The position numbers and the translations under genes were made by a program. This document shows, piece by piece, positions 17 through 49,354 of a stretch of DNA of 64,000 nt. The notes under the pieces are model-generated. The model did not search any database, was not told the origin of the DNA, and saw only the letters and a list, made by a program, of their open reading frames with translations. The first letter of the stretch is position 1. Each line of letters starts with the position of its first letter. Source of the DNA: Pseudomonadota bacterium (GTDB lineage Bacteria; Myxococcota_A; Polyangia; Polyangiales; JAKSBK01); NCBI GenBank assembly GCA_022361155.1, contig JAKSBK010000210.1, positions 2,364-66,363 of the forward strand. Direction: 5' to 3'.

Positions 17-141
17 GTTCCCGCCCAGAATCGCGCGACAGCGGTTTACGTCCTCGCCCCGGCCCTGCGAAATACTTCCAGTATTCCTCGGTCCGGCGCT
101 CCGGGCGCACGCGCTCTCGCATCGATTCTGGGCGGGAACTA
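17..141. repeat. MITE-like palindromic interspersed element, copy D (about 123 bp)
   Basis: Terminal inverted repeats gttcccgcccagaatcg (17-33) and cgattctgggcgggaac (123-139). Central hairpin aatac/gtatt. Same architecture as the copies at 9522, 21251, 35803 and 36066. TAG (139-141, minus strand) abutting the repeat is the dnaJ stop. Confidence 0.75.
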
Positions 142-1239
142 ACCGAGCCAGGTGCGTAGCTTTTCCAAGAACGACTGCTGTCTTGGGTGGGTTTCGGCGT
201 CGAGCTCGGCAGCGAGCTGCTGAACCAGGCGGGCCTGGCGTTCGCTGAGCTTGGCTGGAACCTCAAGATGCACGGTCACCAGCTGGTCCCCCTTGCCGTA
301 ACCACCGAAGACCGGGAAACCCTTACCTCGCAACCGAAATACCGTGCCGGGCTGTGTGCCTGCAGGCACTCTCATGCGCAGCTTGCCCTCGAGCGTGGGC
401 ACATCCACGTGTGCGCCGAGCGCAGCCTGGGCGAAACTGATGGGTATCTCGCACAGGATGTTCGCATCTTCGCGGGTAAACAGCGGGTGCTTTTTCAGAT
501 GCACCTCGACGTGCAGGTTGCCCGTGCCGCCGAGCGTCTGCTCGCCGCCGCCCCGCAGCGTCCGCACCGCGCCATGTTCTATCCCGGCGGGCACACGCAC
601 CGTCATCGTTTCAGTGCGCTGTACGGTGCACTCTGCGCGGCACTCGCTGCAGGCAGTCTGGATGCGTTTGCCGCTGCCGTTGCAGGCGCTGCATGAACGA
701 CTGGCGCTGAAGAAGCCACGCTGGAACTGAATCTCGCCCCGGCCCTGACACGCCGGGCATTCGGTGAGCGGCGTACCGGGCTCGGCTCCACTTCCCGAGC
801 AGTGCGGGCAGATAACCTGCCGCTCGAGCTGGATCTCCTTGGTCACGCCCTTGGCTGCTTCCTCCAGGGTCAGCTCCAACTCGTAGCGAAGGTTTCGCGG
901 AGCCCTGTGCCGCGGTCCGGCTCGGCGCATTCGGAACACGTCGCCGATCAAGCCTTCCAGTATGTCGCTGATTGCCCCGAAATCCACCTGGTCGCGGTTG
1001 GATCCCGAGGTTCTTTCGTAGGCGGCGGCTCCGACCCGGTCGTAGTGGCGACGCTTGTCCGGATCGCTTAGCACGGAAAACGCTTGACTCGCAGTCTTGA
1101 AGGCTTCCTCTGCGCCTTCGTCGTCGGGATTGTGATCGGGATGGTGCTTTATGGCGAGCTTGCGATAGGCTCGCTTGATGTCTTCGGTGGAGGCGGTTCG
1201 GTCTACACCCAATACCTCGTAGTAGTCCCGGGAGGCCAT
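139..1239 (-). CDS. dnaJ: Molecular chaperone DnaJ (J domain plus CxxCxGxG zinc-finger repeats)
   Basis: N-terminal DYYEVLGV...HPD J domain. Zinc-finger motifs [25 protein letters not shown]-terminal substrate-binding region. Confidence 0.9.
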
Positions 1240-7408: not shown

Positions 7409-9460
7409 TCAGCGGCGAGCCCGCCGAAAAGCGCGTCTCTGACGCCCTTGGCGCGTGTTTCCAGGTTGCTGGGCTCCGCCCTGCAGGTTGGTGATGCGGT
7501 CCCTCAGCTCCCCCGCCCTCTCGAACTCGAGTTGATCTGCCGCAATCAGCATTTCGCTCCGCAGCCGTTCGATCAGCAGCGGGAGCGACTCCGAGTGCGC
7601 GTCGTCCTCGGGTGCGTCCCCTTTGGGCACGGGCAGATAGTCTTGTTCGAGGGCGTCGGTCGCCATGTCCGGCAACGCCTTGCGCACGCTGCGAGGCGTA
7701 ATGCCGTGCTGGTGATTGTACTGCGCCTGGATCTCGCGGCGGCGCTCCGTTTCGTCGATGGCTTGCTGCATGGCCCGCGTAAGACGATCGGCGTACATGA
7801 TGACTTGTCCGTGTACGTTGCGCGCCGCCCGGCCGATGGTCTGAATCAGCGAGCGCGGCGAGCGCAGGAACCCTTCCTTGTCGGCGTCCAAAATCGCCAC
7901 CAGCGATACTTCAGGCAAGTCCAGCCCCTCTCGAAGCAGGTTGATTCCCACCAGCACATCGAACTTGCCGGAGCGAAGATCCCGCAGGATTTCCACACGC
8001 TCCAAGGTGTCGATGTCGCTATGCAGGTAGCGCACCCGCACGCCCAACTCCGCGTAGTACTCCGTAAGATCTTCGGCCATGCGTTTGGTCAGCGTGGTGA
8101 CGAGCACGCGTTCATCGCGCTCGGCGCGCAGTCGGATCTCGTGCAGCAGATCGTCGACCTGGTTGCTGACAGGCTTGACCGTGACCTTCGGGTCCATCAG
8201 GCCGGTGGGTCGCACGACCTGTTCGATCACGACACCGCCCGTCTTGTCGAGCTCGTAGTCGCCAGGCGTCGCGCTCACGTAGATACGCTGGCTGGCCCGC
8301 TGCTCGAACTCCTCGAACCGGAGCGGCCGGTTGTCGAGCGCGCTCGGCAGGCGAAAGCCGAAGTTCACGAGGGTTTGTTTGCGCGAGCGGTCCCCACGGA
8401 ACATCGCGCCGAGCTGCGGGACGGTCTGATGCGACTCGTCGAGCACGAGCAGATGATCCTCTGGCAGGTAGTCGAGCAGGGTCGGTGGAGGCTCGCCCGC
8501 GGAGCGACCCGAAAGATGCCTCGAGTAGTTCTCGATGCCGTGGCAGAATCCCATCTGTTCCAGCATCTCCAGGTCGTACAGTGTTCGCTGCTCGAGACGC
8601 TGCCGTTCGAGCAGCTTGCCCTCTTGTGCGAGCTTGGGCAGCTGCACGCGCAGTTCCGCGCGGATGGACTCGATCGCCCGCCGGCGCTGATCCTCGGGCG
8701 TGACGTAGTGCGACCCCGGATAGACGCCGTAGCGCTCGAGCTCACGCACGACCTTGCCCCGCAGCGGCTCGATCTCGCTGATGCGCTCGATCTCGTCGCC
8801 CCAGTACTCGATCCGTACGCCCAGGTCTTCTTCGTAGGCAGGAAAGATCTCGACCACGTCACCTCGGACACGGAAGGTACCCCGGTGAAAGTCGACGTCG
8901 TTGCGTTGGTACTGGATGTCGACCAGCCGCCGCAGCAGCTCGTCGCGCAGCAGCTCTTCGCCTCGCTTGATGGTGACGATCATGCCTTGATAGGCTTCCG
9001 CCGAGCCCATGCCGTAGATGCACGACACGCTGGCGACGATAATCACGTCGCGGCGCGACAACAGCGATCGGGTAGCGCTGTGTCGCATGCGGTCGATGCG
9101 GTCGTTGATGATCGCATCCTTTTCGATGTAGGTATCGGTGGTGGGAAGGTAGGCTTCGGGCTGATAGTAGTCGTAGTAGCTGACGAAGTACTCCACCGCG
9201 TTGCGCGGGAAGAAGCTTTTCATCTCCGAGTAGAGCTGCGCGGCGAGCGTCTTGTTGGGCGCGATGATCAACGCGGGGCGCTGCAACTGCTGGATCAGCT
9301 GGGCGACGGTGAACGTCTTGCCGCTGCCCGTGATGCCCAGCAGCACCTGATGCTGCTGCCCCTGCGTCAGGCTCTGGCACAACTGCTCGATCGCCTGCGG
9401 TTGATCACCGCGCGGCGACAGGTCGCTCAGTAGCTCGAATCGTTGCGCCGCTTCGGGCAT
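7409..9460 (-). CDS. uvrB: Excinuclease ABC subunit B
   Basis: GITGSGKTF Walker A, helicase motifs, and C-terminal UVR domain ([12 protein letters not shown]). Start taken at ATG 9460 ([10 protein letters not shown]...). Confidence 0.95.
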
Positions 9461-9521
9461 GCCGCGACTAGTAGCACGAATCACGAGTTCACCAGGGTCC
9501 TGCGGACCGGCCACCAGTCCA

Positions 9522-9680
9522 AGGGCCCGCGGAAGAATAGCTCATCCATTTCGCCGGTTCTGACCACCGCCGGCTATGTTGCTCCTCCTCGAAGTATCCC
9601 CAATACTCCTCGTCGGCGCGCCTCGCCAGCGGCGCCCAGTCCTCACCGAAACGCACGAGTTATTCTTCCGCGGGCCCTAA
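9522..9680. repeat. MITE-like palindromic interspersed element, copy A (about 157 bp)
   Basis: Inverted repeats agggcccgcggaagaata (9522-9539) and tattcttccgcgggccct (9661-9678). Central hairpin agtat/atact. About 85% identical in reverse complement to 21251-21330. The CTA at 9677-9679 is the stop of the ABC ATPase gene. Confidence 0.8.
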
Positions 9681-10621
9681 GGGCCCGAATCCTGGTTGAC
9701 CGCCTTGCGCACGAAGAGGTCCTCGAGGGTCTCGCGCTTCGGCGTCACCGCGATCAAGGTAGCCTGATGGTCGAGCGCGCTGCGGACGACTTCAGGCACT
9801 GCTGCATCGCCTTCGATCGTGACTACCAGGCTGCCCTCCAAGTCGCTGATCTGCATGGCTTGCCGTTCGAGCTGCGCGCGGCACGCCGCGGTCACGTTCG
9901 CAAGCTCGACCTCGACGTGGCGCACCTCGGGTCGCAGGAGCGTGGAAAGCGACCCCGTTGCACTGACGAGGCCTTGATTCAGAATCGTCACCTCATCGCA
10001 GAGCATCTCGACATCGCTCAGGATGTGACTCGTGAAGATCAAGGTCTTGCCGCGCCTGCGTTGATCCAGCAGCACATCGCGCACGTGCTTGCGCCCTACG
10101 GGATCGAGCCCGCTGAACGGTTCGTCCAGGATCAGCATCTCGGGATCGTGCAGCAGCGCCTGCGCCAGGCCGATGCGTTGCATCATGCCTTTGGAGAAGC
10201 GACCGATCGGTCGATCGACGGCGTCCGAAAGCCCCACGTCTTCGAGCTGCTTCGTGCTGCGCGCCTTGCGTTCGCGTTCTTGGAGCCCCACCAGCCGGCC
10301 GCACAGGTCCAGAAACTCGAGCGGACGCAAATACTCGTAGACATAGGGGTTTTCGGGCAGGTAGCCCAGTCGCGCGCGCGCCTCGCGGCTGGCGCCCTCC
10401 GAGCCGAACAGCCGGATGCTGCCCCGGGGGGGATGGATCAGGCGCAGTGCCATCTTGATCGTCGTGGTCTTTCCTGCGCCGTTCGGTCCCAGAAAGCCGA
10501 AGATCTGGCCCCGCCGCACGCTGAAGCTAATGCCCCTGACCGCATGCACCGGCTTGCGAAAAAAGCCGATGCGGAACGTCTTGTGCAGGTCACGGACCTC
10601 GAGCACGCTGTCGCCAGCCAT
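9677..10621 (-). CDS. ABC transporter ATP-binding protein (ABC-2/DrrA-like), no adjacent permease
   Basis: Walker A GPNGAGKTT, signature FSKGMMQRIGLA, Walker B ILDEPFSGLD. Start ATG 10621 or 10651. Confidence 0.85.
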   Translation of the reverse strand: MAGDSVLEVRDLHKTFRIGFFRKPVHAVRGISFSVRRGQIFGFLGPNGAGKTTTIKMALRLIHPPRGSIRLFGSEGASREARARLGYLPENPYVYEYLRPLEFLDLCGRLVGLQERERKARSTKQLEDVGLSDAVDRPIGRFSKGMMQRIGLAQALLHDPEMLILDEPFSGLDPVGRKHVRDVLLDQRRRGKTLIFTSHILSDVEMLCDEVTILNQGLVSATGSLSTLLRPEVRHVEVELANVTAACRAQLERQAMQISDLEGSLVVTIEGDAAVPEVVRSALDHQATLIAVTPKRETLEDLFVRKAVNQDSGP

Positions 10622-10647
10622 GGAGCAGGGTGCGCGGCTGGCACGCG

Positions 10648-11778
10648 TCATGGTGCTTTTCCCGCGCCGCCCCCCAGCACAGCAGCGACGGCGTCGATCA
10701 CGAGTTGCTGTTCGCCGGCTTGCAGCGTCGGATAGAGCGGCAATGCGATGCCGTATTCGGCGATGTGCTGAGCGTTTGGAAAGGAGCGTCCCCGTTGCCG
10801 AGCCAGCTGGCTGGCCTGTGCCAGCTGCGGCAAGCTATGCATCGCGTACGAGAGCATACCGGCCTCGACGTTCCTGGCACGCAGCTGTTCGAGCACGCTG
10901 GCGCGCCGGCTTGCAGACCGCGGAAGCAGCGCGCCCATGGTCTGAACGTTCCACTCGGCACCGGCTGGGGCGCGCTGGAACTCGAGCCCGCCCAGCGCCG
11001 CACGGTAGCGGGCCGAGAGCGCTCGCCTGCGGGCCACGATGGCATCCAGACGTCCGAGCTGGATGCTGCCCATGGCGGCAGCCATTTCGGTGAGCCGGAA
11101 GTTACCCGCAGGCTCGCGGAACCGGCCGGGCGCGGATTGACCGTGGTTGCGCAAGACCGTGAGCCTGTGCGCCAGCTCGGGTTGGTCGGTCAGGCAGGCG
11201 CCCCCTTCGCCCGTAGTCAGCAGCTTTCTCGGATGGAAGCTGAGGCAGGCGATGAGTCCCATCGAACCGCAGGGCTCACCATGCAGGGAGCTTCCGAGGC
11301 TGCAGGCCGCGTCCACGATCAGCGGTAGCTCGCCCAGCGCCGCCTGGATTTCGGTCACTCGGGCGGGGACACCAAACTGGTCGATCACCACGGCGGCGCG
11401 CGTCCGATCGGTACGTGCTTCGGCGAACGCGGCGGGTAGGGCGTTCCATTCGTGGCGATCCACATCCACCAGCACGGGGCTCGCGCCGCAGCGGATGATG
11501 GCATGTGCGGGGCTTGGCCAGCTCAGATCCGGGCACAGTACCTCGTCGCCGGAGCCCACCCCCGCCGCCTGCAGCGCGAGGCTCAGCGCGGCCGTACCGC
11601 TCGCCACGGCGACCGCGAAGGTGCGCCGGCAGGTCGCGGCCAGCAACTCCTCGAACTCGGCGACCCGTTGCCCTTGCACGAGGCGGCCCGAACCGAGCAC
11701 CGCCGCCACGGCGTCGAGCTCTTCGGAGCCCAGCATCGGCTTGCACAGAGGGATCACTGCCAGGTCGCGTTGTCCCAA
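10648..11778 (-). CDS. DegT/DnrJ/EryC1/StrS-family PLP aminotransferase
   Basis: Family-typical fold pattern (GDEVLCPD..., SFHPRKLLTTGEGG with the PLP lysine region). 4-nt overlap with the downstream ABC ATPase. Confidence 0.8.
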   Translation of the reverse strand: MGQRDLAVIPLCKPMLGSEELDAVAAVLGSGRLVQGQRVAEFEELLAATCRRTFAVAVASGTAALSLALQAAGVGSGDEVLCPDLSWPSPAHAIIRCGASPVLVDVDRHEWNALPAAFAEARTDRTRAAVVIDQFGVPARVTEIQAALGELPLIVDAACSLGSSLHGEPCGSMGLIACLSFHPRKLLTTGEGGACLTDQPELAHRLTVLRNHGQSAPGRFREPAGNFRLTEMAAAMGSIQLGRLDAIVARRRALSARYRAALGGLEFQRAPAGAEWNVQTMGALLPRSASRRASVLEQLRARNVEAGMLSYAMHSLPQLAQASQLARQRGRSFPNAQHIAEYGIALPLYPTLQAGEQQLVIDAVAAVLGGGAGKAP

Positions 11779-12230: not shown

Positions 12231-12465
12231 GAGGTAACCGTTATCCGAACCGCAGCCCGGCGTATTCCTCGTGCGACTGCTGCGGGCGTGCGCGCCCAGA
12301 AAACCGCCCGAAAGCCCGGCTTCCTGGGACCCCGAACGGTTTCGTTGAGAGCCGAAGCCGAGCGCCTACTGTCGACCCCGTAGCGCCCATGTCACGATTG
12401 TTACGCTCGTGTGTCGAAAGCGACCCGTTTTTCCACAGCGCGGATCGGCGCCCATGTGGATTCCC

Positions 12466-21086: not shown

Positions 21087-21254
21087 ATGAAGGACGAAGT
21101 CCCTGGGCAGAGCGAACCACCTCAGGACCCAGCTAGGCGGCCCTACGAGCCACCGGCGATCGAAGAGAGCGCTCAATTCAGCGTGCTGGCCTTGGGCTGC
21201 GATATTCAGCCGGGGGTTTGCGAGTTCCCCGATACGCCCAGTGCGAGCCTTTAG
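21087..21254 (+). CDS. 55-aa acidic/Pro-rich peptide with two C-terminal Cys (candidate RiPP precursor)
   Basis: GGAGA SD 6 nt upstream of ATG 21087. Sequence MKDEVPGQSEPPQDPARRPYEPPAIEESAQFSVLALGCDIQPGVCEFPDTPSASL. Starts 20 nt after the FG-GAP gene stop and is followed by an S26 peptidase gene. Confidence 0.45.
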   Translation: MKDEVPGQSEPPQDPARRPYEPPAIEESAQFSVLALGCDIQPGVCEFPDTPSASL

Positions 21255-21411
21255 GGCCCGCGAGAGAATGATTTGCGCGTTTCGGCGAGGACCGGGCGCC
21301 GCTGGCAAGGCGCAACGACGAGGAATGTTGGGGATATTTCGAGGAGGATGGACACAGCCAGCCGTGGTCGGAAGCGGCGAAACCCATGGGGGCGCCGCTT
21401 CTGTTCGTGGA
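21251..21411. repeat. MITE-like palindromic interspersed element, copy B (about 160 bp, distal repeat degenerate)
   Basis: ttagggcccgcgagagaatg... aligns at about 85% to the reverse complement of 9601-9680. Central hairpin aatgt/atatt (with G-U). TAG 21252-21254 is the stop of the 55-aa ORF. Confidence 0.75.
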
Positions 21412-26017: not shown

Positions 26018-27949
26018 ATGCGCCCACCTAGCAGCTCTGGCAGCATGATCGGCGTAGCTGGCCTTTTGGCCGTGGCAGCGCTGGCCTGCGGAGGCGAAGA
26101 CGAGCACGCGGCACACGGCCTGACACCGGAAGATCGCACGTGGCTGCAGGACCTGTTGGCAACTGCGCCCGCGACCGGGGGTTTCGGCACGTCCGACCGC
26201 ACCACGCTGCAGGGGATCGCAACCGCGATCCAGATGGCCGCCGGGCCGACCGGCGGCTTCGGCGCATCCGACCGCACCACGTTGCAGGGGATCGCAACCG
26301 CGATCGAGATGGCCGCCATGCCGGTCACCACGCTTCCGCCCCAGGGCGGGCCGGGCTGTCATGCCTTGCGCCCCGGGCTCGAGCATAGCGGCACCGAGGG
26401 CGAGTTCATCGTGCGGCTGTTGAACGCCTCGCCGTGGCCCGAGCACCCCGGCAGACACACCTGGCTCGTCCAGCTGCTCGACATGAGCGGCAAGCCACCG
26501 ATGGGCGTCGGCATGGAGGTCGAGGCCCGCATGCCCGCGCACGCGCACGACGCCGGCCCGATCACCGTGCGCGATCGCTCGCCTGACTTCGGCGATGGAG
26601 TGTTCGAGATCGCCGGCATGGACCTAGCCATGGCCGGGCTGTGGGAGATCCGGATCGAGGCGACGCACAGAAACACGACCGACCAGATCCAGTTCAACGT
26701 GTGCCTGGTCGACCCGCCAGCGCCCGGACACGCCTTCGAGCAGCTCTACGTGTTCAGCCAGAGGCTCGGCAGCCCCAACGACCCCATGGACGACGAGGCC
26801 TGGATCACGATCCTCCGGCCCGGTGCCGAGAGGCCCGTGCTCGAGGAAATCGAAATGCACGGGGCCAACTGGGGCGATGCGGTCGTGGCTCCATCCGGCG
26901 AGCGGCTCTTCGTCAACGACCGGGGCAAGAACCAACTGGTGGTGATCGATACAGCCGCGCAAGCGGTGGAGGCCAGGCTCGACGTGGGTGGCCGGCCCAC
27001 GCATCTGTACAACCCCAACCACGGGCACGAAATCTGGACCCACTCCGACGCAGAGGGCGCGTTCTACATCGCGGACATCGACACGCTCGAGCTAATGGGA
27101 CCGGTCGTGGCGGCGCTCGACAACTCGGGTCACGGCAAGCTGGTCTACGACCCCTCGATCGCGCCGAAGGCGTACGCGACCAACACCAACGATGCCGCGG
27201 TCTTCCCGTTGGATCTGGACCACAAGACCGTGGACTACGCCATCCCGGTCTGCGGTTACACCGACAGCGCGGGCATGCCGGCCGGCGGCACCCACGACAA
27301 GGCCATCTCGCCCTTCAACGGCTATGCCTACTTCCAGTGCACCGGCGGCCAGGGTTTTTCCATTGTCGATACCAGCAACGATTCGGTGGTTCGCGACAAG
27401 CTGCCGCTGAGCGGTTCGGTGAGCCAGTCCCCGGACCACCGTTTCATCTTGGTGATCAATGCCTGCGTGGATGAACCGAGCTGCACCCAGGGCGAAGTCA
27501 ACGTCTGGGACACGCTGCTCGGCGATGGCGTCGCTGTTGATCACACCGTGTCGCTGAGCGGCCAGCCCAGCGCGCGCGGGACCCACTTCCTCGTGCCTGG
27601 AGGAAACTACAACCGCATGCTCGCCTACATCCCGCAGTCAGGCGGCAACGGCGTGGCCGTGCTCGATTTCGCCAAGCTCGTAGCCGATCCCCTGACCCCG
27701 CAAGCGGCAGTGAGCGTGGTCGGCGTGGGCGCGGTGGCCGACCCGGGCACGTCGCACTGGTCGCGCCGCGGGGCGCTCGGTGCGGATGCCTTCTACACGG
27801 TCGTCGACGATGTTTCGGGCCAAGCGGTCGCTGCGATCGCCCTGGACGATCACAGGGTCATGGGCGAACCGATCGCCATCAAAGGCGTGATCTCCCGCCT
27901 CGCGGTGGTTCCGGCCGGCCGAGGTCATGCCCGCGCAGCGGGCCCTTAG
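26018..27949 (+). CDS. Lipoprotein with YtkA/FixH-like Ig domain and a YVTN-type beta-propeller
   Basis: Lipobox LAVAALACGG. WLVQLLDMSGKPPMGVGMEVEARMPAHAHD...GLWEIRIEA resembles a YtkA/FixH-type domain. The C-terminal 400 aa are beta-propeller-like. Divergent from feoAB across the Fur box. Confidence 0.6.
   Translation: MRPPSSSGSMIGVAGLLAVAALACGGEDEHAAHGLTPEDRTWLQDLLATAPATGGFGTSDRTTLQGIATAIQMAAGPTGGFGASDRTTLQGIATAIEMAAMPVTTLPPQGGPGCHALRPGLEHSGTEGEFIVRLLNASPWPEHPGRHTWLVQLLDMSGKPPMGVGMEVEARMPAHAHDAGPITVRDRSPDFGDGVFEIAGMDLAMAGLWEIRIEATHRNTTDQIQFNVCLVDPPAPGHAFEQLYVFSQRLGSPNDPMDDEAWITILRPGAERPVLEEIEMHGANWGDAVVAPSGERLFVNDRGKNQLVVIDTAAQAVEARLDVGGRPTHLYNPNHGHEIWTHSDAEGAFYIADIDTLELMGPVVAALDNSGHGKLVYDPSIAPKAYATNTNDAAVFPLDLDHKTVDYAIPVCGYTDSAGMPAGGTHDKAISPFNGYAYFQCTGGQGFSIVDTSNDSVVRDKLPLSGSVSQSPDHRFILVINACVDEPSCTQGEVNVWDTLLGDGVAVDHTVSLSGQPSARGTHFLVPGGNYNRMLAYIPQSGGNGVAVLDFAKLVADPLTPQAAVSVVGVGAVADPGTSHWSRRGALGADAFYTVVDDVSGQAVAAIALDDHRVMGEPIAIKGVISRLAVVPAGRGHARAAGP
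26174..26317 (+). repeat. In-frame 75-nt tandem duplication (25-aa unit TGGFG[TA]SDRTTLQGIATAI[QE]MAA)
   Basis: Two near-identical units starting at 26174 and 26249, inside the lipoprotein CDS. Confidence 0.85.
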
Positions 27950-27995
27950 GGCCCGCGGAAGAATAGCTCGTCTGTATCGCCCGGTGAGTGACTCG
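27946..27995. repeat. Partial (one-arm) copy of the MITE-like element
   Basis: ttagggcccgcggaagaatagctcgtctgtatcgcc... matches the arm of copy A for about 45 bp. TAG 27947-27949 is the stop of the upstream lipoprotein. Truncated at the pstB 3' end. Confidence 0.6.
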
Positions 27996-28766
27996 TCAGC
28001 CATAGCGCCCTTCAATGTAGTTGGCGGTTCGCTTGTCCGTGGGATTGAGGAACAGGGTCTCGGTGCGAAGGTGCTCTATCTTCTCCCCCAGCAGCATGAA
28101 GACACACTCGTCGCTGACACGCCGGGCCTGAGCCATGTTGTGGGTGACGATCAAGATCGTGTAGCCGCCGCGAAGCTCCCTGATCAGCTCCTCCACCCGC
28201 TGGGTGGCCGCAGGATCAAGCGCAGAGCAGGGCTCGTCCATCAGCAACACCTCGGGCTTCAGCGGCAGCAGGCGGGCAATGCACAGCTTCTGCTGCTGCT
28301 CGAGAGGAAGGGTGGTCGCCCGCGCACGAAGCTTGTCCTTGAGGTCGTCCCATAGCCCGACTCGGCTCAGCGCCTGCTCTACGTAGGCCTCCGTTTCGCC
28401 TGACTTCGAGCGTTGCCCTCGATGAATCCTGAGTCCGAACACGATGTTCTCGGCTATGGACAGCGGAAGTGGGTTCGGCCGTTGGAAGACCATTCCGACC
28501 CGCCTGCGAAGCTCGATCAGATCGACCTCCGGCGCATAGATATCGTGGCCGAGTATCTGCACCGAGCCCACCGTACGCACGCCTTCGATGCGTTCGTTGA
28601 TCCGGTTGAAGCAGCGCAGCAGCGTGGTCTTTCCGCATCCAGAAGGGCCGATGAGCGCGGTGACCAACCCGTGCTTGATATCGAGGCTTACGTCCTTGAG
28701 CGCCTGAAAGTCCCCGTACCACAGGCTCAGCTCGCTGGCCCGGATTCCTTGCCGCACGGCCGTCAT
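27996..28766 (-). CDS. pstB: Phosphate ABC transporter ATPase PstB paralog 2 (degenerate signature motif)
   Basis: Canonical Walker A GPSGCGKTT, Q-loop VGMVFQRPNP, Walker B LLMDEP and H-loop IVTHNM. The ABC signature reads TLPLEQQQKL instead of LSGGQQQRL. Confidence 0.85.
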   Translation of the reverse strand: MTAVRQGIRASELSLWYGDFQALKDVSLDIKHGLVTALIGPSGCGKTTLLRCFNRINERIEGVRTVGSVQILGHDIYAPEVDLIELRRRVGMVFQRPNPLPLSIAENIVFGLRIHRGQRSKSGETEAYVEQALSRVGLWDDLKDKLRARATTLPLEQQQKLCIARLLPLKPEVLLMDEPCSALDPAATQRVEELIRELRGGYTILIVTHNMAQARRVSDECVFMLLGEKIEHLRTETLFLNPTDKRTANYIEGRYG

Positions 28767-34323: not shown

Positions 34324-34398
34324 GCACCGCATCGACCTGCACCGCATCGACCTGAGCCGCATCGACCTGAGCCGCATCGACCTGAGCCGAATCGAAAC
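34324..34398. repeat. 15-bp tandem repeat x5 (g[ca][ag]ccgcatcgacct)
   Basis: Five head-to-tail units, the last degenerate, lying 124-198 bp upstream of the lipoprotein start at 34522. Confidence 0.9.
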
Positions 34399-34521
34399 GA
34401 AGCCGGGCAACTCGAATCGACTTTCAGGACCGTTGTTCTAGGCTGCGTGTATGCCGCAAACACGACAACTACCTGCCGGGCAAACGTCTTATTCGACCGA
34501 TGGCACCCCATAGTGCAACTC

Positions 34522-35802: not shown

Positions 35803-35906
35803 GGCGGTCTTCTGGGCGGCTTTCGTCCTCGGCCTCGCCCTGCGAAGTACGCGTAGTACTCCTCGGGCGATTCCTGCGGGCGCGCTCGCCCAGAAGACCG
35901 CCTAAA
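35803..35906. repeat. MITE-like palindromic interspersed element, copy C (about 100 bp)
   Basis: Inverted repeats ggcggtcttctgggcg (35803-35818) and cgcccagaagaccgcc (35887-35902), followed by TAA. Central hairpin agtac/gtact. Confidence 0.7.
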
Positions 35907-36065
35907 AACCCGACTGACAGGGGCCTGGACAGTTACCCACAGCAGGATGCGGGGACGGCGGCGCCCGACGCGATGTCGACGGCGGCCGATGCGGCAACTG
36001 CGCAGGACGCGGCCCCACCGGACGAGGGTTAGTTAGTTAAGTTTAGTGCCCATCCCGAAACGCCC

Positions 36066-36191
36066 GTTCCCGTTCAGAATGGATGCCAGAGCGAGCGCGC
36101 CCGCAGGAGCGGAGCGAAGGAATAGCAGCGCTATTTCAAGCTTCGGTCTGAGGACGAAAGCCGCTCTGGCGCCATTCTGAACGGGAACTAG
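36066..36191. repeat. MITE-like palindromic interspersed element, copy E (about 123 bp)
   Basis: Inverted repeats gttcccgttcagaatgg (36066-36082) and ccattctgaacgggaac (36172-36188), followed by TAG. Central hairpin aatagc/gctatt. Confidence 0.75.
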
Positions 36192-36252
36192 TTAGTCTAG
36201 GGCTTGTCGTGGCTGGCCTCGACCCGTTAGCCTGGGGGGCAAGGAGGAGACG

Positions 36253-37113: not shown

Positions 37114-37560
37114 ATGTTGGCCGAGCAAGATATCCTGCCCTTGCTGAGCGCGGCCGCGGCGGCCCGAAACAATGCGTACGCTCCGTACTCGCGCTTCCGA
37201 GTGGGAGCGGCATTGCTGGCGGGCGAGCGTGTGATTCGCGGCTGCAACGTGGAAAACGCCGCCTATGGAGACAGCATCTGTGCCGAGCGTGGCGCCGTGC
37301 TGGCCGCGGTCGCGGCCGGGCTTAGGGAGTTTCGCGCCCTGGCGGTGTCCACGGAAGCGAGCACGCCCGTGCCACCCTGCGGTAGCTGCCGTCAGGTACT
37401 GCGCGAGTTCTGCCTCGACGACTTCCCCATCGTGATGGGCGCAGCGAGCGGTACCTACACCGTGGTCAGCCTCAACGACCTGTTGCCGGCCGCCTTTACG
37501 AGCCGCTCGCTATCGGACGCTGGCCGGCCCCCGTGGCCGCCCCGCCCGCCGCCGCGCTAG
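37114..37560 (+). CDS. cdd: Cytidine deaminase
   Basis: AYAPYSRFRVGAALL, CAERGAV (zinc and catalytic Glu) and PCGSCRQVLREF motifs. Confidence 0.9.
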   Translation: MLAEQDILPLLSAAAAARNNAYAPYSRFRVGAALLAGERVIRGCNVENAAYGDSICAERGAVLAAVAAGLREFRALAVSTEASTPVPPCGSCRQVLREFCLDDFPIVMGAASGTYTVVSLNDLLPAAFTSRSLSDAGRPPWPPRPPPR

Positions 37561-38951
37561 AACGCCGCCTGCAGCTGCACGCGCAACCGGACGACGCCCT
37601 GGCTCCGCTGCTCGCCGTATCCCCACAACTGGAACAGATCCGCCTGCAACTTGAAGGGGTGGCGCGCGAAATAGTAGCCGCCCACGATGCCCAACTCGTT
37701 CTTGCCCTTGAGCACCGAAGCGTCGCCGCCGGGACGGGTCATCCCGAAGCGTGCCCCGAGCTCCAAAGCCATGCCTGGAAGCAGGTACCCGCCCTGCAGC
37801 ATCCAGCCTATGCCGTCGGCCAGGTCGGTGCCTCCGCGACCATCGCGCCAATAGAAATCGCCGAGCACCGAGAGCCCGGCGTACTTGAACAGCAGATCGG
37901 CGTTGGCATTGTGAAAGGTGTCGTCGTCCGCTTCGGGCGCCCTGCCCTTGATGCCCTGCACGCCCGGTGCGTTCTGCAGGTAGGCATAGCCCACCCCGAG
38001 CGAGAGCCGCGGCTTCGCTGTGCGTTCGAAGTCCGCCTCCGAGTAATCCTTGAACATGCCGAAGGGCAGCAGCTCGAAGCGAATCAGGTACATGAGGCCC
38101 AGGTCACCCGCACCGGGAGTCCTATCCGAGGTGTTGCGGCCCTCGCCGATGTAGACGCCCGCGTAGTAGCGAAACAAGCCCAGGCCGAGTAGATCCTTGG
38201 ACCGGAAGTCGAGTCCCAGATCCCGGTCCAAGGTGAACTCGCCGTTCGTGATGGCGCGATCGACGAACTGCAGATTGCCCGACGAGATCACCCGCTGCCG
38301 GCTGTAGGGCACCTTGTACTGGCCGACGCGCAGGGTCAGGTCGCGCAGGTAGTCGAACGTCATGTACCAGTCGAGCAGCGGCGTGGTGCCTACAACATTG
38401 CTACGCGTCGTGCCCGTCACTCCCATGCCCATGCCCGTGGGATCCTGAAGCACGACCGTCGGCTGCGTCAGGTCTTCGTCGCGCGGCGAAAACGCGAGCT
38501 CGATCTTGAACGTGTTGTGCTTGCCCCACATGTTGCCGACGAACTGCAAGCGCGCGCGACGAATGTGGAAGACCTCCTCGTCGGGTCCCCCGGCTACCCC
38601 TTCGTACTCGTAGCGGAACTGGCCGCGCAAGCGCGTGACCAGAGCAAAGCGTCCGTCCGCACTCTTGAACTCCAAGCCCTTGCCCGGGCGGAAGCGCGCA
38701 CTCGAGGCATCCGCCGGGTGGTCCTTGACGAGATCCCTTTCCCAGCTCGGGGGAGGATTGGGCCCCAAGGCATCCGAGTCGGTTTTCACGTTCGCTGCAC
38801 GATGGGGTTCTGCCAAGCTCGTTCCTGCAGGCGGCGGCGAGCGCTCACCGCTTTCGTGCGCGTGTTGGGCCTGCCCAGCGTTCGCCGCTCCGAGCCACAA
38901 CCAACAGATGGCGGCACCCCTGAGCCGCTGCCTACTTCGATCCAATGACAT
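37557..38951 (-). CDS. Outer-membrane porin, putative phosphate-selective porin O/P family (paralog 1)
   Basis: Signal peptide from ATG 38951 and beta-barrel periodicity. C-terminal RLRVQLQAAF. Highly similar to the adjacent paralog. The family assignment is recalled, not searched. Confidence 0.6.
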   Translation of the reverse strand: MSLDRSRQRLRGAAICWLWLGAANAGQAQHAHESGERSPPPAGTSLAEPHRAANVKTDSDALGPNPPPSWERDLVKDHPADASSARFRPGKGLEFKSADGRFALVTRLRGQFRYEYEGVAGGPDEEVFHIRRARLQFVGNMWGKHNTFKIELAFSPRDEDLTQPTVVLQDPTGMGMGVTGTTRSNVVGTTPLLDWYMTFDYLRDLTLRVGQYKVPYSRQRVISSGNLQFVDRAITNGEFTLDRDLGLDFRSKDLLGLGLFRYYAGVYIGEGRNTSDRTPGAGDLGLMYLIRFELLPFGMFKDYSEADFERTAKPRLSLGVGYAYLQNAPGVQGIKGRAPEADDDTFHNANADLLFKYAGLSVLGDFYWRDGRGGTDLADGIGWMLQGGYLLPGMALELGARFGMTRPGGDASVLKGKNELGIVGGYYFARHPFKLQADLFQLWGYGEQRSQGVVRLRVQLQAAF

Positions 38952-39265
38952 GCTTTTGCGCCTCGTGTACGTCCCGGCGGTCCTGGAACAGTGATTGCTT
39001 AGATAGCTCGGGTAGCTTGGGTAACTCGGTGAGCGAAACCTTAAAACCCAAGTTCCCTCAAAGCTCAAGCTCGGGAAAGTGCAGGGGCATGCACCAATCC
39101 GGACCAATCGAGCCGTACAACGCCCCAGGATACAGGCGTGACCGCCCCGGAGACGGGGAGGGCAGCGAGCACCCCATGCATGCAGGCCCGTACCAACCCG
39201 CATCCGAGCTCACTCGCCGGTTGGCGCGCAGCCCAACAGCGTGGCCGCTCGAGCGTTTCGTAGGC

Positions 39266-40678
39266 TCAGAACGCCGCTTGCAGCTGGACGCGCAGGCGAG
39301 TGTTTTGGCCCGCTTTGCTGCCCTGATTCCACAGCTGAAACAAGTCCGCCTGAACCTTCAGGGGATGCTGTGCAAAGTAGTGGCCCACCACGACGCCGAG
39401 CTCGTTCTTGCCCTTGAGCACGGATGAGCGTCCGCGGGGACGGGTCATGCCGTAGCGAGCCCCGAACTCGAGGGCCGTGTAGGGCAGCAGGTAGCCTCCC
39501 TGCAGCATCCAGCCGTAGCCGTCGGACAGGTCCTCGCCGCCGCGGCCTTTGCGTACATAGAAATCGCTCAGCACGCACAGCCCGGCGAACTTGAACAACA
39601 GGTCGGCGTTGGCATTGTGGTAGTTCACCTGCTGCTTGGGCGTGCTTCCGAGGATTCCTCGACTTCCCGGTGCGTTCCGCAGGTAGGCGTAACCGGCACC
39701 GATGGAGAGCCTCGGCCTGAAGCTGCGCTCGAAGTCGGCCTCGGAATAGTCCTTGAACATCCCGAACGGCAAGACTTCGATACGCCCGAGCGCCATCAAG
39801 CCGAGGTCGCCCGCTCCGCGCGTCTTGTTCGAAGTGTTGCGACCCTCTCCAATGTAAACGCCGGCATAGTACTTGAGCACTCCGAGGCCGAGAAAGTCCT
39901 TGGACCGAAAATCAAGACCCAGGTCTCGATCCAGCGTGAACTCGGCATTGGTGACGGCGCGATCCACGAACTGCAGGTTGCCCGAGGAAACGACGCGCTG
40001 GCGGCTGTAGGGAATCTTGTACTGGCCCACGCGCAGCGTCAGGTCTCGCAGATGATCGAACGTCACGTACCAATCGAGCAGCGGGGTGGTACCCACCACG
40101 TTGGCAGCGCTGTTCGTGTTGTCGGAGAGCGCGATCGGCTGGCGTGCCATGTCGCGCGGCGCGACGGCGAACTCGACTTTGAACGTGTTGTGCTTTCCCC
40201 AGAAGTTGCCAAGAAACTGCAGGCGCGCGCGGCGGATCTGAAACGCCTGCCGGTCCTCGGCACCGCTTACCGACTCGTAGTCGTATAGGAACTGTGCTCG
40301 CAAGCGCGTTATGAGTGCGAACCGACCGTCCCCGGTCTTGACCTCGAGCCCCTTGCCCGGCCGGAAACGCATGCTAGCAGGCGCTGCCGCGTGGTTTCGG
40401 ACGAGCTCGCTCTCCCAGGCCGGTACGAGGTCGTTGCGTTCTTCCGGAGCGGTGCTCGGTTGGGAAACAACACGCTGCGGCGAAGCACCAAGCTGGTCGA
40501 CACCGTGCCGAGCGACACCATACCGAGTGTCAGCACCTTGTTCGGCCCTTGCGAAGAACTGCTGGGCCTTTGCGGAAGGCGCTCCCGCGGTCAAGAACAA
40601 GAGCAACGCGGCGGCATGCGCACGCGCAGGGCTCCCGTTGACTTTGCGAACCTTCGATTGCGTCAGTCGTAGCGGCAT
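39266..40678 (-). CDS. Outer-membrane porin, putative phosphate-selective porin O/P family (paralog 2)
   Basis: Signal peptide ...LLLFLTAGAPSAKAQ. Collinear similarity to 37557-38951 across the whole barrel, with the same C-terminus RLRVQLQAAF. Confidence 0.6.
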   Translation of the reverse strand: MPLRLTQSKVRKVNGSPARAHAAALLLFLTAGAPSAKAQQFFARAEQGADTRYGVARHGVDQLGASPQRVVSQPSTAPEERNDLVPAWESELVRNHAAAPASMRFRPGKGLEVKTGDGRFALITRLRAQFLYDYESVSGAEDRQAFQIRRARLQFLGNFWGKHNTFKVEFAVAPRDMARQPIALSDNTNSAANVVGTTPLLDWYVTFDHLRDLTLRVGQYKIPYSRQRVVSSGNLQFVDRAVTNAEFTLDRDLGLDFRSKDFLGLGVLKYYAGVYIGEGRNTSNKTRGAGDLGLMALGRIEVLPFGMFKDYSEADFERSFRPRLSIGAGYAYLRNAPGSRGILGSTPKQQVNYHNANADLLFKFAGLCVLSDFYVRKGRGGEDLSDGYGWMLQGGYLLPYTALEFGARYGMTRPRGRSSVLKGKNELGVVVGHYFAQHPLKVQADLFQLWNQGSKAGQNTRLRVQLQAAF

Positions 40679-41372: not shown

Positions 41373-41559
41373 CGTTGTCTCGTTGTTCGCAGCTGGGGCC
41401 CGGCGCAGCAGCCATGGCAGCGCGGGGCTTGCGTGCCCGAGCACGATCCGCTACGACCCCGCGCGTTGCATGGGCCTGAGCCTGGCTCTCCGGGGCCGAA
41501 GGGTGGCCCGCCAGTGTAGGGCACTCACTCACCAACCAGCCACAAGCTGAATAGCAGCC

Positions 41560-41796
41560 ATGAAGCCAGGCATCCATCCCGAATACCAACAGTCCGTTAT
41601 CACCTGCGCGTGTGGGGCGCGCTACGAGACCCGCTCGACGCGCGGTTCGTTCACCGTCGACCTATGCGCTCAGTGCCATCCCTTCTACACGGGACAGCAG
41701 CGTGTCGTGGATTCCGCCGGTCGCATCGATCGCTTTCGCAGGAAATACGCCAAAAAGGCGGACACGAAACGCAAGAAACCGACTGACACCTCTTAG
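41560..41796 (+). CDS. rpmE: 50S ribosomal protein L31
   Basis: MKPGIHPEY...CxC...[12 protein letters not shown]... is the canonical zinc-ribbon L31. Confidence 0.95.
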
Positions 41797-41811
41797 GGCC
41801 GTCCAAGAATA
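41793..41811. repeat. Solo terminal-repeat-like motif of the MITE family at the rpmE stop
   Basis: cTTAGGGCCgtccAAGAATAa compared with TTAGGGCCCGCGGAAGAATA. The TAG at 41794-41796 is the rpmE stop. Confidence 0.4.
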
Positions 41812-41893
41812 ACCGGTCGAGACCGGCCGCGCAGCGTGGAGGCGATTCGTCCCCGGATGCGACCCCCACCTTGGTGCGGTATACTGATCCGTC

Positions 41894-42913
41894 ATGACGG
41901 AAGGCGCTGCGAAGTACATAGGTGGGCAGGCCGTCATCGAGGGGGTAATGATGCGGTCGTCCTGCGGCCTTTCGGTGGCCGTGCGCCGGCCGAACGGCGA
42001 CATCGCAGTCAGCGACAAACCGCTGGTCGATCGTTGGGAAAGCTCGAGGCTCTGGAGGCTGCCGGGCTTTCGAGGCGTCGCCGCCCTGATCAGCTCGGTT
42101 TCGGACGGTTTCAGCGCGCTGCGCTTCTCGGCAGAACAGCAGCTCGATGAGGCGGAGCGCAAGCAGGAAGCGCAGGCATCGACCAAGGGCGCGTTCGTCG
42201 TATCGACCTTGATCGCGCTGCTTGTCTTCATCGCGCTGCCTCAGCTGATGACGGCCGGAGCGGCGAGCTTCATGGGCACTGAGCTCGCGGTTCAAGACTG
42301 GCGCTTTCACCTGATCACGGGTGGCTTCAAGCTGCTGCTGCTGGCGGGTTATCTTTGTCTAATCGGACAGATCCCCGACGTGCGCCGCGTGTTCCAGTAC
42401 CATGGTGCGGAGCACAAGACGATCTATGCGTACGAGCAGGGTTTCGAGCTGACCGTGGACAACGTACAGCGCCAGTCCAAGCTGCATCCGCGTTGCGGAA
42501 CGACGTTTCTGATCGTGGTGATCGTCATCTCGATCGTGCTCGGCTCGCTGGCGACCCCGTTGTTGCTTCCCGGCGCCCAGGGGGTGAGCGGCCAGCTGTT
42601 GACGCTGGCGCTGCGACTGGCGCTGCTGCCGATCGTGGCGGGGATGTCGTACGAGCTTCAGCGCTGGCTGGCGCGGCAGCCTGATTCGGGCCTGCTCGGC
42701 GTGCTGCTCTGGCCTGGATACGCGTTTCAGCTCATCACTACGAGGGAGCCAGACGACACCCAGGTCGAGATCGCGATCGCAGCCATGCAGACCGCTATTT
42801 GGCGCGAAACCGTGGGCAGGGAGGTGCCAGAAGGCGAGCCGCTCGTGTTCCGCGGGTTCGAGGCCTTCAACAAGGCGCTGCCCTCGCTGCGCCCCCTAGC
42901 AGCGGCTGCATAG
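41894..42913 (+). CDS. DUF1385-family membrane protein (YqhQ-like)
   Basis: IGGQAVIEGVMMR N-terminal motif, YHGAEHKTI, and multiple TM helices. Located upstream of prfA, as is common. Confidence 0.8.
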   Translation: MTEGAAKYIGGQAVIEGVMMRSSCGLSVAVRRPNGDIAVSDKPLVDRWESSRLWRLPGFRGVAALISSVSDGFSALRFSAEQQLDEAERKQEAQASTKGAFVVSTLIALLVFIALPQLMTAGAASFMGTELAVQDWRFHLITGGFKLLLLAGYLCLIGQIPDVRRVFQYHGAEHKTIYAYEQGFELTVDNVQRQSKLHPRCGTTFLIVVIVISIVLGSLATPLLLPGAQGVSGQLLTLALRLALLPIVAGMSYELQRWLARQPDSGLLGVLLWPGYAFQLITTREPDDTQVEIAIAAMQTAIWRETVGREVPEGEPLVFRGFEAFNKALPSLRPLAAAA

Positions 42914-47038: not shown

Positions 47039-49354
47039 GTGGACGGCTACCGTGCAGACGGCTTGCACCGATTGCGATGTCAGCTAGTGTCGCGGTCGGG
47101 TCTTCGTATGCCGGACGGAGCCAAAGCGCAGTCCGCCGCGGGTTACATGGGAGTCGCTGGTGAGACACGGGCCGAGCGCGTCCACGTCCCGGCGGCGGAC
47201 GGTGGCCTCGACAGCGTGGAGATCTACCGCTGCATCAACGTGGCCACCGATCCGGAGCTCAAAGAGCGGGCGCTCGAGGGTCGCCTGCATCGCCTGGCCG
47301 ATGGACGCGAGCTCGCCGTGCCGTTTGTCTACCACGACCCCGCGTCAAGCAGGTTCGCGCTGGTGGTCCCGAGCGTGTTGGCCTACCGAGAGCTTCCCGA
47401 GCGTGCCCAGCTTCTGTGCGAAGTCGCGCGCGAAACCGCTCACGCCATACCCGCCTACGTGCGCGCCTGTCCGAGTCTCGTGGGACTCGACGCCCTTAGG
47501 AGCTTCCTCGAGCAAGCGCCTCAGCAGCAACCGGGGCCAAGACAAGCCAGCGCCACGCAAACAGCCAGCGAGCCCACGCAGCCGGAGCCAACGCCGCGCC
47601 CTAGAACGCCGCCAGGGCCCATGCACGAAAGCGTCGAGTGGACTACCCAGATCACCGAGGGCGAGCTGCACGAGGTACGTGAAGCGCTCAACGCTCTGGA
47701 CAGCGACGACGAGGTGGTGCCGCCCCCGTCGCAGGCTCCCGAACGGCACCCGGCCAGGGGCTCTCTACCACCCCCGATACGCAGCGCACCTCCCGGGCTG
47801 GGGTCCCGACCCGGAAGCAGGCCACCACCGCTGCATCGTAGAGCCGAAGCGGTGCCGCCCCCGCTGCACTTGACGCGCAGGTCAAGCCCGGTCCCGCGCA
47901 ACGATGGGCCGACGGCGGCGCTTTCGGCGCCCCAAGGGGGCGTCCGGTCGGCTCCCCCGCCATTGCCTCGACATGACGCAAGCCGCGACGGTAGCGAGCC
48001 AGGCAGAAACGACAGCGGCGACAGCGATAGCGACACCTACGCGGTAGCCGAGCCCACGCACGTAGAGGGTCCGCAGCCAGGTGTGGCTCCGCCACCTTCA
48101 TTCTTCGACACCTCGGGGCCGCATTTGGCCGCAGTGGTGGCCGGCGAGGAGCTTTGGCTGTTTGCTCGCATGGAACCGAGCTTCTTTGAAGCTCACCGGC
48201 CGCAAACACTCGAGCTGTGGGTGCAGGGGATCGAGGCCCAGGGCTGTCCCTTGGTTGTTGTCGTGCTAGGTGAAGCGCGGTCCGAGGCTTCACGCTACCT
48301 GTTGCGTGTACCGCTGGCGCTTCACGAGCGGGACGATAGGCGCGTGATCGACGCGCTCGTGCGAGCCTTCGAGGCCAGGGTGGCGCTCTACCGTGGCGAG
48401 CGCTACCAGCGCACGATCCAGGTACGCGGCCACGACCGCGGCACGCAGCTGCGGCACGTACTCGAACGGCTGGACCAGCTGCCGCGCCCGATGCCGCACA
48501 CAAGCGCCGCTGCCATGGCGCGGCTGCGTAGCGATCCACCGCCCTTCGAACCGAATGCCGCCAGCCTGTTGCTGCGCACGGACGCACATGGGCGCTACAG
48601 CGCGGTCCCTTCGCAAGCAGGGTCCCCCGCGGCGCGCGCGGCATCCACGCGACCAGCCGGGAGCACCCCGCCGCCCCCCCCCACCCCGGCAGCCGCGCGA
48701 GCCGACGCAGCTCCCGCACACCCGTCACCCCCGGTGGGAACCGGCGGGGACGGCGGTCACCGCTTGGCTACGCTCCTGACTATGTGCCGCAAACGTGACC
48801 CGGCCGCGCTGCCTAAGCTCCTTGCCGATGTGCAAGAACTGACCATCTTCGAGGCTGCCCAGGTATTCGCAGCGACGGTGGGCTTCGGCGGCAGCGTATT
48901 GCCGGTGCTGCTCGAGGGGCTCAGTGAAACGTCCCCGGCCATCCGCCAGCTGTCGATGCTGGCCATCGGCGAGCTCGGGGACAGCCGTGCTGTCGTCCCC
49001 ATGCTCCAGCAGCTGCGCCGCGAGCCAACCGAAGCGTGGCGCGAGGCCGCGAGGGCGCTCGGCTGCATGGGATCGGAGGTCTTCAAGGCCATCGACGACA
49101 GCCTCGACCTGAGTGACTACGAGGACCGCCACGTGCTCGCGCTCGCCCACCTGTCCAACCGGGGAGCGCTATCCGACTTGCAGAAAATGGAAAAAGGGGA
49201 CGGCCAGAAACGGCGCAACGTGGCCCGCAAGGCGCTCGCGGTTCGGGGCCTGGTGCGGAGCGAGGACCGGGCCGTTCGTTCCGCGGGGGTGCTTCCCAGG
49301 GAAGACGAAGTGAAACGATTGTCGCAGGGCTTCTACGCAGCGCTGCACCCCTAG
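47039..49354 (+). CDS. Hypothetical protein with Pro-rich linker and C-terminal HEAT/PBS-lyase-like repeats
   Basis: C-terminal LSETSPAIRQLSMLAIGELGDSRAVVPMLQQL repeats. Start uncertain (47039, 47108 or 47147). Confidence 0.55.
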   Translation: MDGYRADGLHRLRCQLVSRSGLRMPDGAKAQSAAGYMGVAGETRAERVHVPAADGGLDSVEIYRCINVATDPELKERALEGRLHRLADGRELAVPFVYHDPASSRFALVVPSVLAYRELPERAQLLCEVARETAHAIPAYVRACPSLVGLDALRSFLEQAPQQQPGPRQASATQTASEPTQPEPTPRPRTPPGPMHESVEWTTQITEGELHEVREALNALDSDDEVVPPPSQAPERHPARGSLPPPIRSAPPGLGSRPGSRPPPLHRRAEAVPPPLHLTRRSSPVPRNDGPTAALSAPQGGVRSAPPPLPRHDASRDGSEPGRNDSGDSDSDTYAVAEPTHVEGPQPGVAPPPSFFDTSGPHLAAVVAGEELWLFARMEPSFFEAHRPQTLELWVQGIEAQGCPLVVVVLGEARSEASRYLLRVPLALHERDDRRVIDALVRAFEARVALYRGERYQRTIQVRGHDRGTQLRHVLERLDQLPRPMPHTSAAAMARLRSDPPPFEPNAASLLLRTDAHGRYSAVPSQAGSPAARAASTRPAGSTPPPPPTPAAARADAAPAHPSPPVGTGGDGGHRLATLLTMCRKRDPAALPKLLADVQELTIFEAAQVFAATVGFGGSVLPVLLEGLSETSPAIRQLSMLAIGELGDSRAVVPMLQQLRREPTEAWREAARALGCMGSEVFKAIDDSLDLSDYEDRHVLALAHLSNRGALSDLQKMEKGDGQKRRNVARKALAVRGLVRSEDRAVRSAGVLPREDEVKRLSQGFYAALHP

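Follow-up and report, generated by a model that had tools for sequence, protein, structure and literature searches.

The stretch of DNA analysed here (the window, 64,000 nt in length and 65% G+C) carries a dispersed family of short elements with terminal inverted repeats, and at four genes the end of such an element coincides with the stop codon. In each of the four, as the ORF listing and translations confirm, the TAG that closes the reading frame spans the junction on the sense strand: its TA is the end of a TTA flank, and its G is the opening base of the inverted repeat. This holds for dnaJ (ORF 139..1239, minus strand), whose TAG at 139-141 is composed of the TA of the flank and the G at 139; an ABC ATPase gene (9677..10651, minus strand), whose TAG at 9677-9679 joins the TA of a duplicated triplet to the element's G at 9677; the gene for a 643-aa beta-propeller lipoprotein (26018..27949, plus strand), with its TAG at the element junction (27947-27949); and rpmE (41560..41796, plus strand), with its TAG (41794-41796) at the junction with an 18-nt relic. 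An earlier note had counted at least five genes with a stop supplied in this way, and probably one more. Four of these cases are solid, one is doubtful, and one has to be rejected. The doubtful case is a 55-aa ORF that does end at an element end (21252-21254) but whose codon-position GC is not gene-like; no NCBIfam family matched it (55-62 aa). At the rejected one, a 771-aa ORF (stop 49352-49354), nhmmer detects no adjoining element, and chance alone would yield 0.29 matches to a pattern made to fit the site.

TAG is a frequent stop in this DNA. On the calls of a simple GC3-based caller, rather than a trained gene finder, TAG closes 25 of the window's 51 genes, TGA 23, and TAA 3, and only 4-5 of the TAG stops are linked to an element; the other fetched loci gave 32 TAG, 61 TGA, and 15 TAA. 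A TAG share of 49% is high for a bacterium. It could thus be argued that TAG is so common that repeats beginning with G and lying after genes would often abut one by coincidence, a reading to which we attach hardly any credence. Of about 8 copies in the window, 4 abut a stop with single-base precision, as do 11 of about 33 copies elsewhere, and the junction stops of the latter include TAA. Furthermore, a T precedes just 1 of the 20 TAG stops that lack an element, and the count at stops exceeds that expected from harmless TTA/TAA sites (binomial p = 0.002, see below). Among the TTAG stops of real genes in the window, 4 of 5 carry an element end.

Architecture of the repeat family

The most complete member, a type-A element of 155 nt (9523..9677, minus strand) with ends GGGCCCGCGGAAGAATA, lies between the stop of the ABC ATPase gene and the next gene on the same strand. 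Its terminal inverted repeats can be extended to arms of 31-32 nt that are 88% complementary, and the whole copy is predicted to form a single hairpin (dG -103.8 kcal/mol, z -14 against shuffled sequences). The triplet next to the ABC gene (9678..9680, minus strand) reads TTA on the minus strand, and the second copy of the duplication, at the other end (9520..9522, minus strand), has decayed to TTG (CAA on the plus strand). When this element was used as a query, nhmmer returned two further type-A matches. One (21254..21390, plus strand) is 83% identical to the query, has a decayed far end, and is flanked by TTA at 21251-21253. The other (27949..27990, plus strand) is a truncated copy of about 40 nt, comprising one terminal repeat plus about 25 nt and flanked by TTA at 27946-27948; it is wedged between the lipoprotein stop and a convergent pstB-like gene (stop at 27996-27998).

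The fourth type-A copy, the solo terminal-repeat relic 3' of rpmE (41796..41813, plus strand; TTA flank at 41793-41795), reads GGGCCGTCCAAGAATAAC and matches the terminal repeat GGGCCCGCGGAAGAATAAC. It is missed by nhmmer. A flank-free pattern, GGGCCN{4,7}AGAATA, is expected 0.07 times per window and matches only three canonical ends and the rpmE site; since it is so rare by chance, the relic was accepted as a genuine solo end. Six same-population contigs carry the identical relic. A sigma-70-like promoter match (9/12, consensus only) spans 41783-41810 and is made up of AAGAAT from the inverted repeat and a flanking CTGACA 16 nt upstream.

A second group of copies differs in sequence. After dnaJ lies a type-D element (17..139, minus strand) with terminal repeats GTTCCCGCCCAGAATCG and, on the minus strand, flanks of TTA (140-142) and TCA (14-16); its predicted hairpin has a dG of -84.7 kcal/mol (z -6.7 against shuffles). 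The second type-D element (36066..36188, plus strand) is intergenic and away from gene stops, and a TAG follows it at 36189-36191. Two type-E relatives are also intergenic: a copy with terminal repeats GGCGGTCTTCTGGGCG (35803..35902, minus strand), whose flank at 35903-35905 is TTA on the minus strand, and a half-element relic (12259..12307, minus strand; E = 4e-4). The window thus holds four type-A and four type-D/E copies or relics. Type A accounts for the element ends at the ABC ATPase, lipoprotein, rpmE, and 55-aa ORF stops, and type D for the one at dnaJ. Copies of the family measure 70-176 nt and contain no transposase gene, and all full copies are predicted to fold end to end (dG -73 to -127 kcal/mol, z about -7 to -14 against shuffles).

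Types D and E are clear relatives; the sequence link between them and type A is weak. It consists of an exact 17-mer common to the central loops of 36066-36188 and of a copy from the groundwater MAG 'bacterium nzgw111'; the other pairs give p values of about 0.015-0.04. Judged by eye, the sequence of the central stem varies between the subfamilies while its pairing is kept. A small-peptide gene shared by the element interiors (EEYWGYF) was considered and dismissed: the likeness is that of the hairpin's central palindrome, and the sequence differs across subfamilies. Nor does the repeat unit reach into the last codons of the genes, as the 60-nt flanks have no mutual similarity beyond 6-8 nt of GGGCCC. 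A search for further type-D copies gave 85 matches of viral contigs to the degenerate type-D end, which are attributed to chance and have no nhmmer support.

Around the second type-D element, TTAGTTAGTTAAGTTTAG (36029-36046) lies about 20 nt upstream, and TAGTTAGTCTAG (36189-36200) follows the copy directly. The former contains stops in all three frames on both strands, and both resemble stacked TTAG/TWA units, where TWA denotes TTA or TAA. Repeated rounds of insertion and excision could have left the two strings as scars, in a hot spot to which the type-E copy at 35803-35902 would also belong. In the same organism but outside the window, past its left edge, a repeat variant (L075, 5484-5720) lies between a recF-like gene and dnaN. 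It starts TCA|GGGCCCGCGGGACACC, contains a long internal inverted repeat (GTGCCTCGCCACAGGAATCCTG ... CAGGATTCCTGTGGCGAGGCAC), and matches type A weakly (E = 0.008).

Related copies and the target-site duplication

For a search of public genomes and metagenomes, the query was confined to the 17-nt repeat end, which left the flank free to vary, and members were confirmed by nhmmer. In the groundwater MAG, 10 loci hold 11 copies, each about 160 nt long, and versions of 157, about 89-91, and 70 nt occur in Acidobacteria MAGs and soil metagenomes. Where both ends are available, perfect direct repeats (TTA..TTA or TAA..TAA) flank 8 of 18 copies, and at least 4 more copies have flanks that differ at one base. 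Across 51 non-redundant ends, the flanking triplet is TTA in 20 and TAA in 13, and position -4, just before the triplet, holds a C in 29 ends and a G in 15. The inverted arrangement TAA..TTA, in which the triplet would lie inside the inverted repeat, is confined to one copy, represented by two loci (L006 and L026), and a model with a 2-bp TA duplication would leave the two ends of the element unequal.

Direct 3-bp TWA repeats of this kind are a target-site duplication, and the TTA is consequently host target sequence, only the G belonging to the element. The earlier note had treated TTAG as the conserved end of the repeat; this view has to be abandoned, given that the triplet is duplicated target and that TAA is equally common in its place. 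The type-D/E copies, including the one at dnaJ, have no intact duplication (TTA vs TCA, CCC vs TAG, and TTA vs TGG), and their mode of insertion is therefore deduced from their kinship to type A.

The host sequence beyond the triplet has a peculiarity of its own in the window. The earlier note had pointed to a palindrome, GGGCCC-TTA-GGGCCC, at three junctions and to a 6-bp hairpin that it could form at the stop. The palindrome is exact at 9672-9686 and 27940-27954 but degenerate, with two mismatches, at 21245-21259; with up to two mismatches allowed, 0.18 matches are expected by chance. As for the hairpin, a local structure of 6-8 bp is predicted at the truncated lipoprotein copy only, while in the full copy the long hairpin wins. 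The host flank 5' of TTA reads GCGGGCCC or CGGGCCC in two window copies and is degenerate in the third, and this (G)CGGGCCC (listed at 9672-9677 and 27940-27945, and in degenerate form at 21245-21250) is the same sequence as the final 7-8 nt of the inverted repeat. From their sequence, the type-A junctions in the window thus look like two element tips abutted across a duplicated triplet. The GGGCCC flank was absent from about 50 ends in other genomes.

The terminal inverted repeats (with partner ends in 18 copies) and the duplication are directly visible, and together with the small size and dispersed copies they are the features of a MITE; the 3-bp TTA/TAA duplication is that of the IS5 / PIF-Harbinger type. 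We consider it very probable that the repeats are MITEs of this type which insert at TTA/TAA, and that the target motif together with selection places them on stops. In this model, non-autonomous elements of 120-160 nt with long terminal inverted repeats would be moved by an unseen transposase that inserts at TTA or TAA, preferably within C/G-TWA-G, and duplicates the triplet. Because the inverted repeat begins with G, each junction reads TTA|G or TAA|G. Whenever the target overlaps a stop codon (T-TAG, T-TAA, or TAA itself), the stop would be kept as TA|G or TAA|, and the protein would be unchanged. The genome is tightly packed and 65% G+C; its TWA triplets are scarce, and most of them fall within genes, where an insertion would kill the cell or carry a cost. 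Where the gap between genes is short, the stop codon would often be the sole harmless target, and surviving copies would accumulate there.

A parent IS would be expected to have ends GGGCCCGCGGAAGAATAAG, TWA flanks, and an IS5/PIF-type transposase. No autonomous partner was seen beside the terminal-repeat matches checked, either as a partner end within 3 kb or as a transposase-like long ORF, and no partner IS with matching ends turned up in the fetched loci, a plasmid collection, or viral contigs; the assignment to IS5/PIF is therefore drawn from the TTA/TAA duplication. MAG assemblies often lose IS copies. One candidate parent (L022) proved to be a plain palindrome before an unrelated gene.

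Stop codons before insertion and among the available targets

Whether the stops are older than the elements can be read from the empty site, rebuilt by joining the two flanks with a single triplet between them. At the ABC gene, the empty site reads ...GGC CCT TAG ACT..., with the TAG already present, and the rebuilt empty sites of four related loci (L005, L027, L032, and L038) likewise contain an in-frame TAG or TAA. Thus, insertion keeps the stop and leaves the protein unchanged. The earlier note had allowed for a TAG that pre-existed and bore no relation to the element; the stop did pre-exist, but it did so as the insertion target and is hence not unrelated. At dnaJ, the original codon is unreadable because the far flank has decayed to TCA.

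The earlier suggestion that the elements extend or trim ORFs by a few codons does not apply to the ABC gene or to the four related empty sites, but a tail of GPAEE has been added in two or three related loci. In these (L002 4270, L017 369, and L046 327) the flank has changed to CAA or TGG, and ORFs of 76-175 codons continue across it into the inverted repeat as far as the repeat's internal in-frame TAA (GGG CCC GCG GAA GAA TAA). The first 18 nt of the element thus supply a stop codon in two of the three reading frames. In four loci, a TGA directly before GGGCCC was considered as a mutated TAA stop; none of these closes a credible ORF.

Orthologues and relatives were also consulted. Exact look-ups of the RpmE and DnaJ proteins retrieved only same-population contigs, from several metagenomes, all of which carry identical elements, with no empty site among them; the same look-up for the ABC ATPase returned no record. 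The ABC ATPase is identical to a protein annotated as 'MAG: Proteobacteria bacterium', and its nearest homologues, at 64-68% identity, come from Polyangiales and Myxococcales MAGs. Among ABC homologues, the tail that follows RETLEDLFVRKAV varies from about 1 to about 25 residues. Since homologue tails are this variable, the 6-residue tail in the window is uninformative.

How often the elements sit on stops was determined for about 33 non-redundant type-A insertions, of which 11 (about one third) have as their junction the stop of a credible gene, a gene counting as credible when its frame was the best of the six and it had 139-941 codons. As a null, the unoccupied TWA sites in the same 234 kb were classified as stop-compatible (24), intergenic (167), or genic (387). 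Relative to the harmless TWA sites, 12.6% of insertions would be expected at stops (p = 0.002 for 11/33, binomial), and with S-TWA-S as the null the expectation is 15% (p = 0.007). However, when the CTWAG motif is used, the expectation rises to 28% (5 of only 18 sites), against 33% observed, and the excess vanishes (p = 0.30). With all loci taken together, stops are occupied about 3.5 times more than other harmless TWA sites (odds ratio 3.5, p = 0.005); in the window taken by itself, elements occupy 4 of 9 stop-compatible TWA sites but 4 of 54 intergenic ones (Fisher p = 0.011).

These frequencies bear on the idea, raised in the earlier note, of a strong insertion preference for TAG/CTA at stop codons, which was nearly right. 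There is a preference for the TTA/TAA triplet, usually within C/G-TWA-G, but not for stops as such: the target motif plus selection against gene disruption accounts for most of the stop pattern. Beyond the motif, there may be a modest extra preference for, or retention at, stops. A stronger version, in which the transposase or the retention of copies favours stops or gene 3' ends beyond the TWA motif, is unlikely in our estimation. It draws on the window and all-loci comparisons just given, and two routes to it can be imagined. The transposase might capture targets that mimic the element's own tip (GGGCCC-TTA), as the flanks of the type-A window copies would suggest; alternatively, copies with a junction stop might not be cleanly deletable and so persist as relics, and both relics that keep only the stop-proximal end do lie at stops (rpmE and the lipoprotein gene). 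However, the excess is lost against CTWAG sites, the GGGCCC flank is missing from the ends in other genomes, two thirds of the insertions are elsewhere, and the samples are small. We infer that the cause of the excess is passive, with selection and motif acting rather than active recognition of stops, and that the transposase is of the family named above.

The remaining two thirds or so of the copies sit away from stops, many of them 6-12 nt upstream of predicted starts or between divergent genes. Loci in which a copy ends 6-12 nt before a predicted start are L037/L048, L029/L040/L056, L032, L027, L049, and L006/L026. Within the window, 8 nt separate the element that follows the ABC stop from the predicted start of the next same-strand gene (7409..9514; interval 9514-9523); the arrangement looks like an insertion inside an operon.

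Comparison with known repeats and possible functions

Bacterial MITEs have been described as non-coding elements of <200 nt with terminal inverted repeats and a TA-containing duplication (Delihas review, PMC2229807; PMC10969869). Dispersed and truncated copies are found, transcripts of one stem-loop are predicted, and the elements occur downstream of genes and inside operons (PMC2229807; PMC10969869). The anatomy of the Correia/NEMIS, ERIC, RUP, and Chunjie MITEs is the same as that of the window family. However, the classic MITE families are A+T-rich and mostly duplicate TA, whereas the window family is G+C-rich and duplicates TTA/TAA.

Duplications of TTA/TAA define the PIF/IS5 superfamily (PMC4565680). 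Like the IS5 / PIF-Harbinger elements and the Tourist-type MITEs, the window family has a 3-bp TTA/TAA duplication, and GG opens its inverted repeats. Its preference for C-TWA-G resembles that of the maize PIF element for the palindromic target CWCTTAGWG; E. coli IS5 itself differs in duplicating 4 bp.

Other classes of repeat were compared and set aside. IS200/IS605-type palindromic elements and REP/RAYT duplicate no target, have a fixed tetra- or pentanucleotide at just one of their sides, and form short subterminal hairpins, whereas intact copies of the window family have direct TWA repeats on both sides, and the units are 155 nt long with inverted repeats rather than REPs of 20-40 nt. Integron attC sites, imperfect palindromes that follow the ORFs of arrayed cassettes, do not fit either: the ends GGGCCC and GTTCCC do not match the RYYYAAC...GTTRRRY cores, the adjoining genes are housekeeping genes (dnaJ and rpmE), and duplications are present.

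A stop codon supplied by a repeat has a precedent in the pneumococcal BOX repeats, which provide the stop of upstream genes in 36 CDSs, including dnaJ, with no evidence of truncation (PMC3049150). BOX elements thus resemble the window family in overlapping the extreme 3' end of well-known genes, dnaJ among them. However, they are modular (boxA, boxB, and boxC) and have no clear duplication, while in the window family the mechanism is explicit, the stop being put together from the duplicated target and the G with which the inverted repeat opens. Repeats that overlap stops are already known in bacteria, and the window family adds a case without changing this picture. The literature searched held no description of this family.

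The earlier note had also proposed that the element end is a functional 3'-end module (termination, ribosome rescue, or mRNA stability) selected at stops, and coupling of genes by looping the insert out of the message may be added to these roles. Each full copy is predicted to fold from end to end into a highly stable hairpin beginning at the stop codon, and its central stem appears by eye to stay paired despite the subfamily differences; bacterial MITE hairpins have been reported to affect the mRNA of adjacent genes (PMC2229807), and the ABC-site element, with the next predicted start 8 nt away, sits in an apparent operon. Palindromy is, however, expected of MITEs anyway, and two of the four window cases are truncated relics that have no hairpin partner and a z of about 0. 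There is no T-tract, an intrinsic terminator (a GC-rich hairpin plus a T-run) being absent from both 9300-9900 and 41500-42000, and no Rfam family matches at or above the gathering threshold in the whole window. The location of about two thirds of the copies away from stops, many of them just upstream of predicted starts or between divergent genes, and the presence of both orientations at stops also speak against such a module, which we regard as very unlikely.

An improbable variant is that stops and operon junctions are the favoured niche of the MITE family and not merely tolerated. If this were true, the element tip, with G and then a TAA or TAG in frame 18 nt in, would guarantee a stop in two of three frames. 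With the 155-nt insert looped out of the mRNA by the hairpin, the upstream stop and the downstream start would remain next to each other, and the transposase might capture targets that are like its own end (GGGCCC-TTA). The result would be an 'operon-compatible' transposon that saturates T-TAG stops, given that 4 of 5 such stops in the window are occupied.

Insertion at TTA/TAA by a MITE, the reading that we prefer, explains for annotation why several housekeeping genes end in TTAG followed by the same sequence; the C-termini of housekeeping genes that adjoin an element are probably native. It would also make this a G+C-rich MITE family with TTA/TAA duplications that is common to a Myxococcota-like MAG, a groundwater MAG, and soil Acidobacteria, and a clean example of how a target motif that contains a stop, combined with purifying selection, puts mobile elements exactly on stops.

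Repeats of other kinds are also present in the window. Two adjacent genes (37557-39203 and 39266-40678) are paralogous, with 72-78% DNA identity, and the second of these matches the Pfam family Porin_O_P in same-population contigs. A 75-nt tandem duplication lies within the lipoprotein gene (26172-26321), and a 15-nt tandem repeat, CCGCATCGACCTGAG, is present in 4-5 units at 34327-34401.
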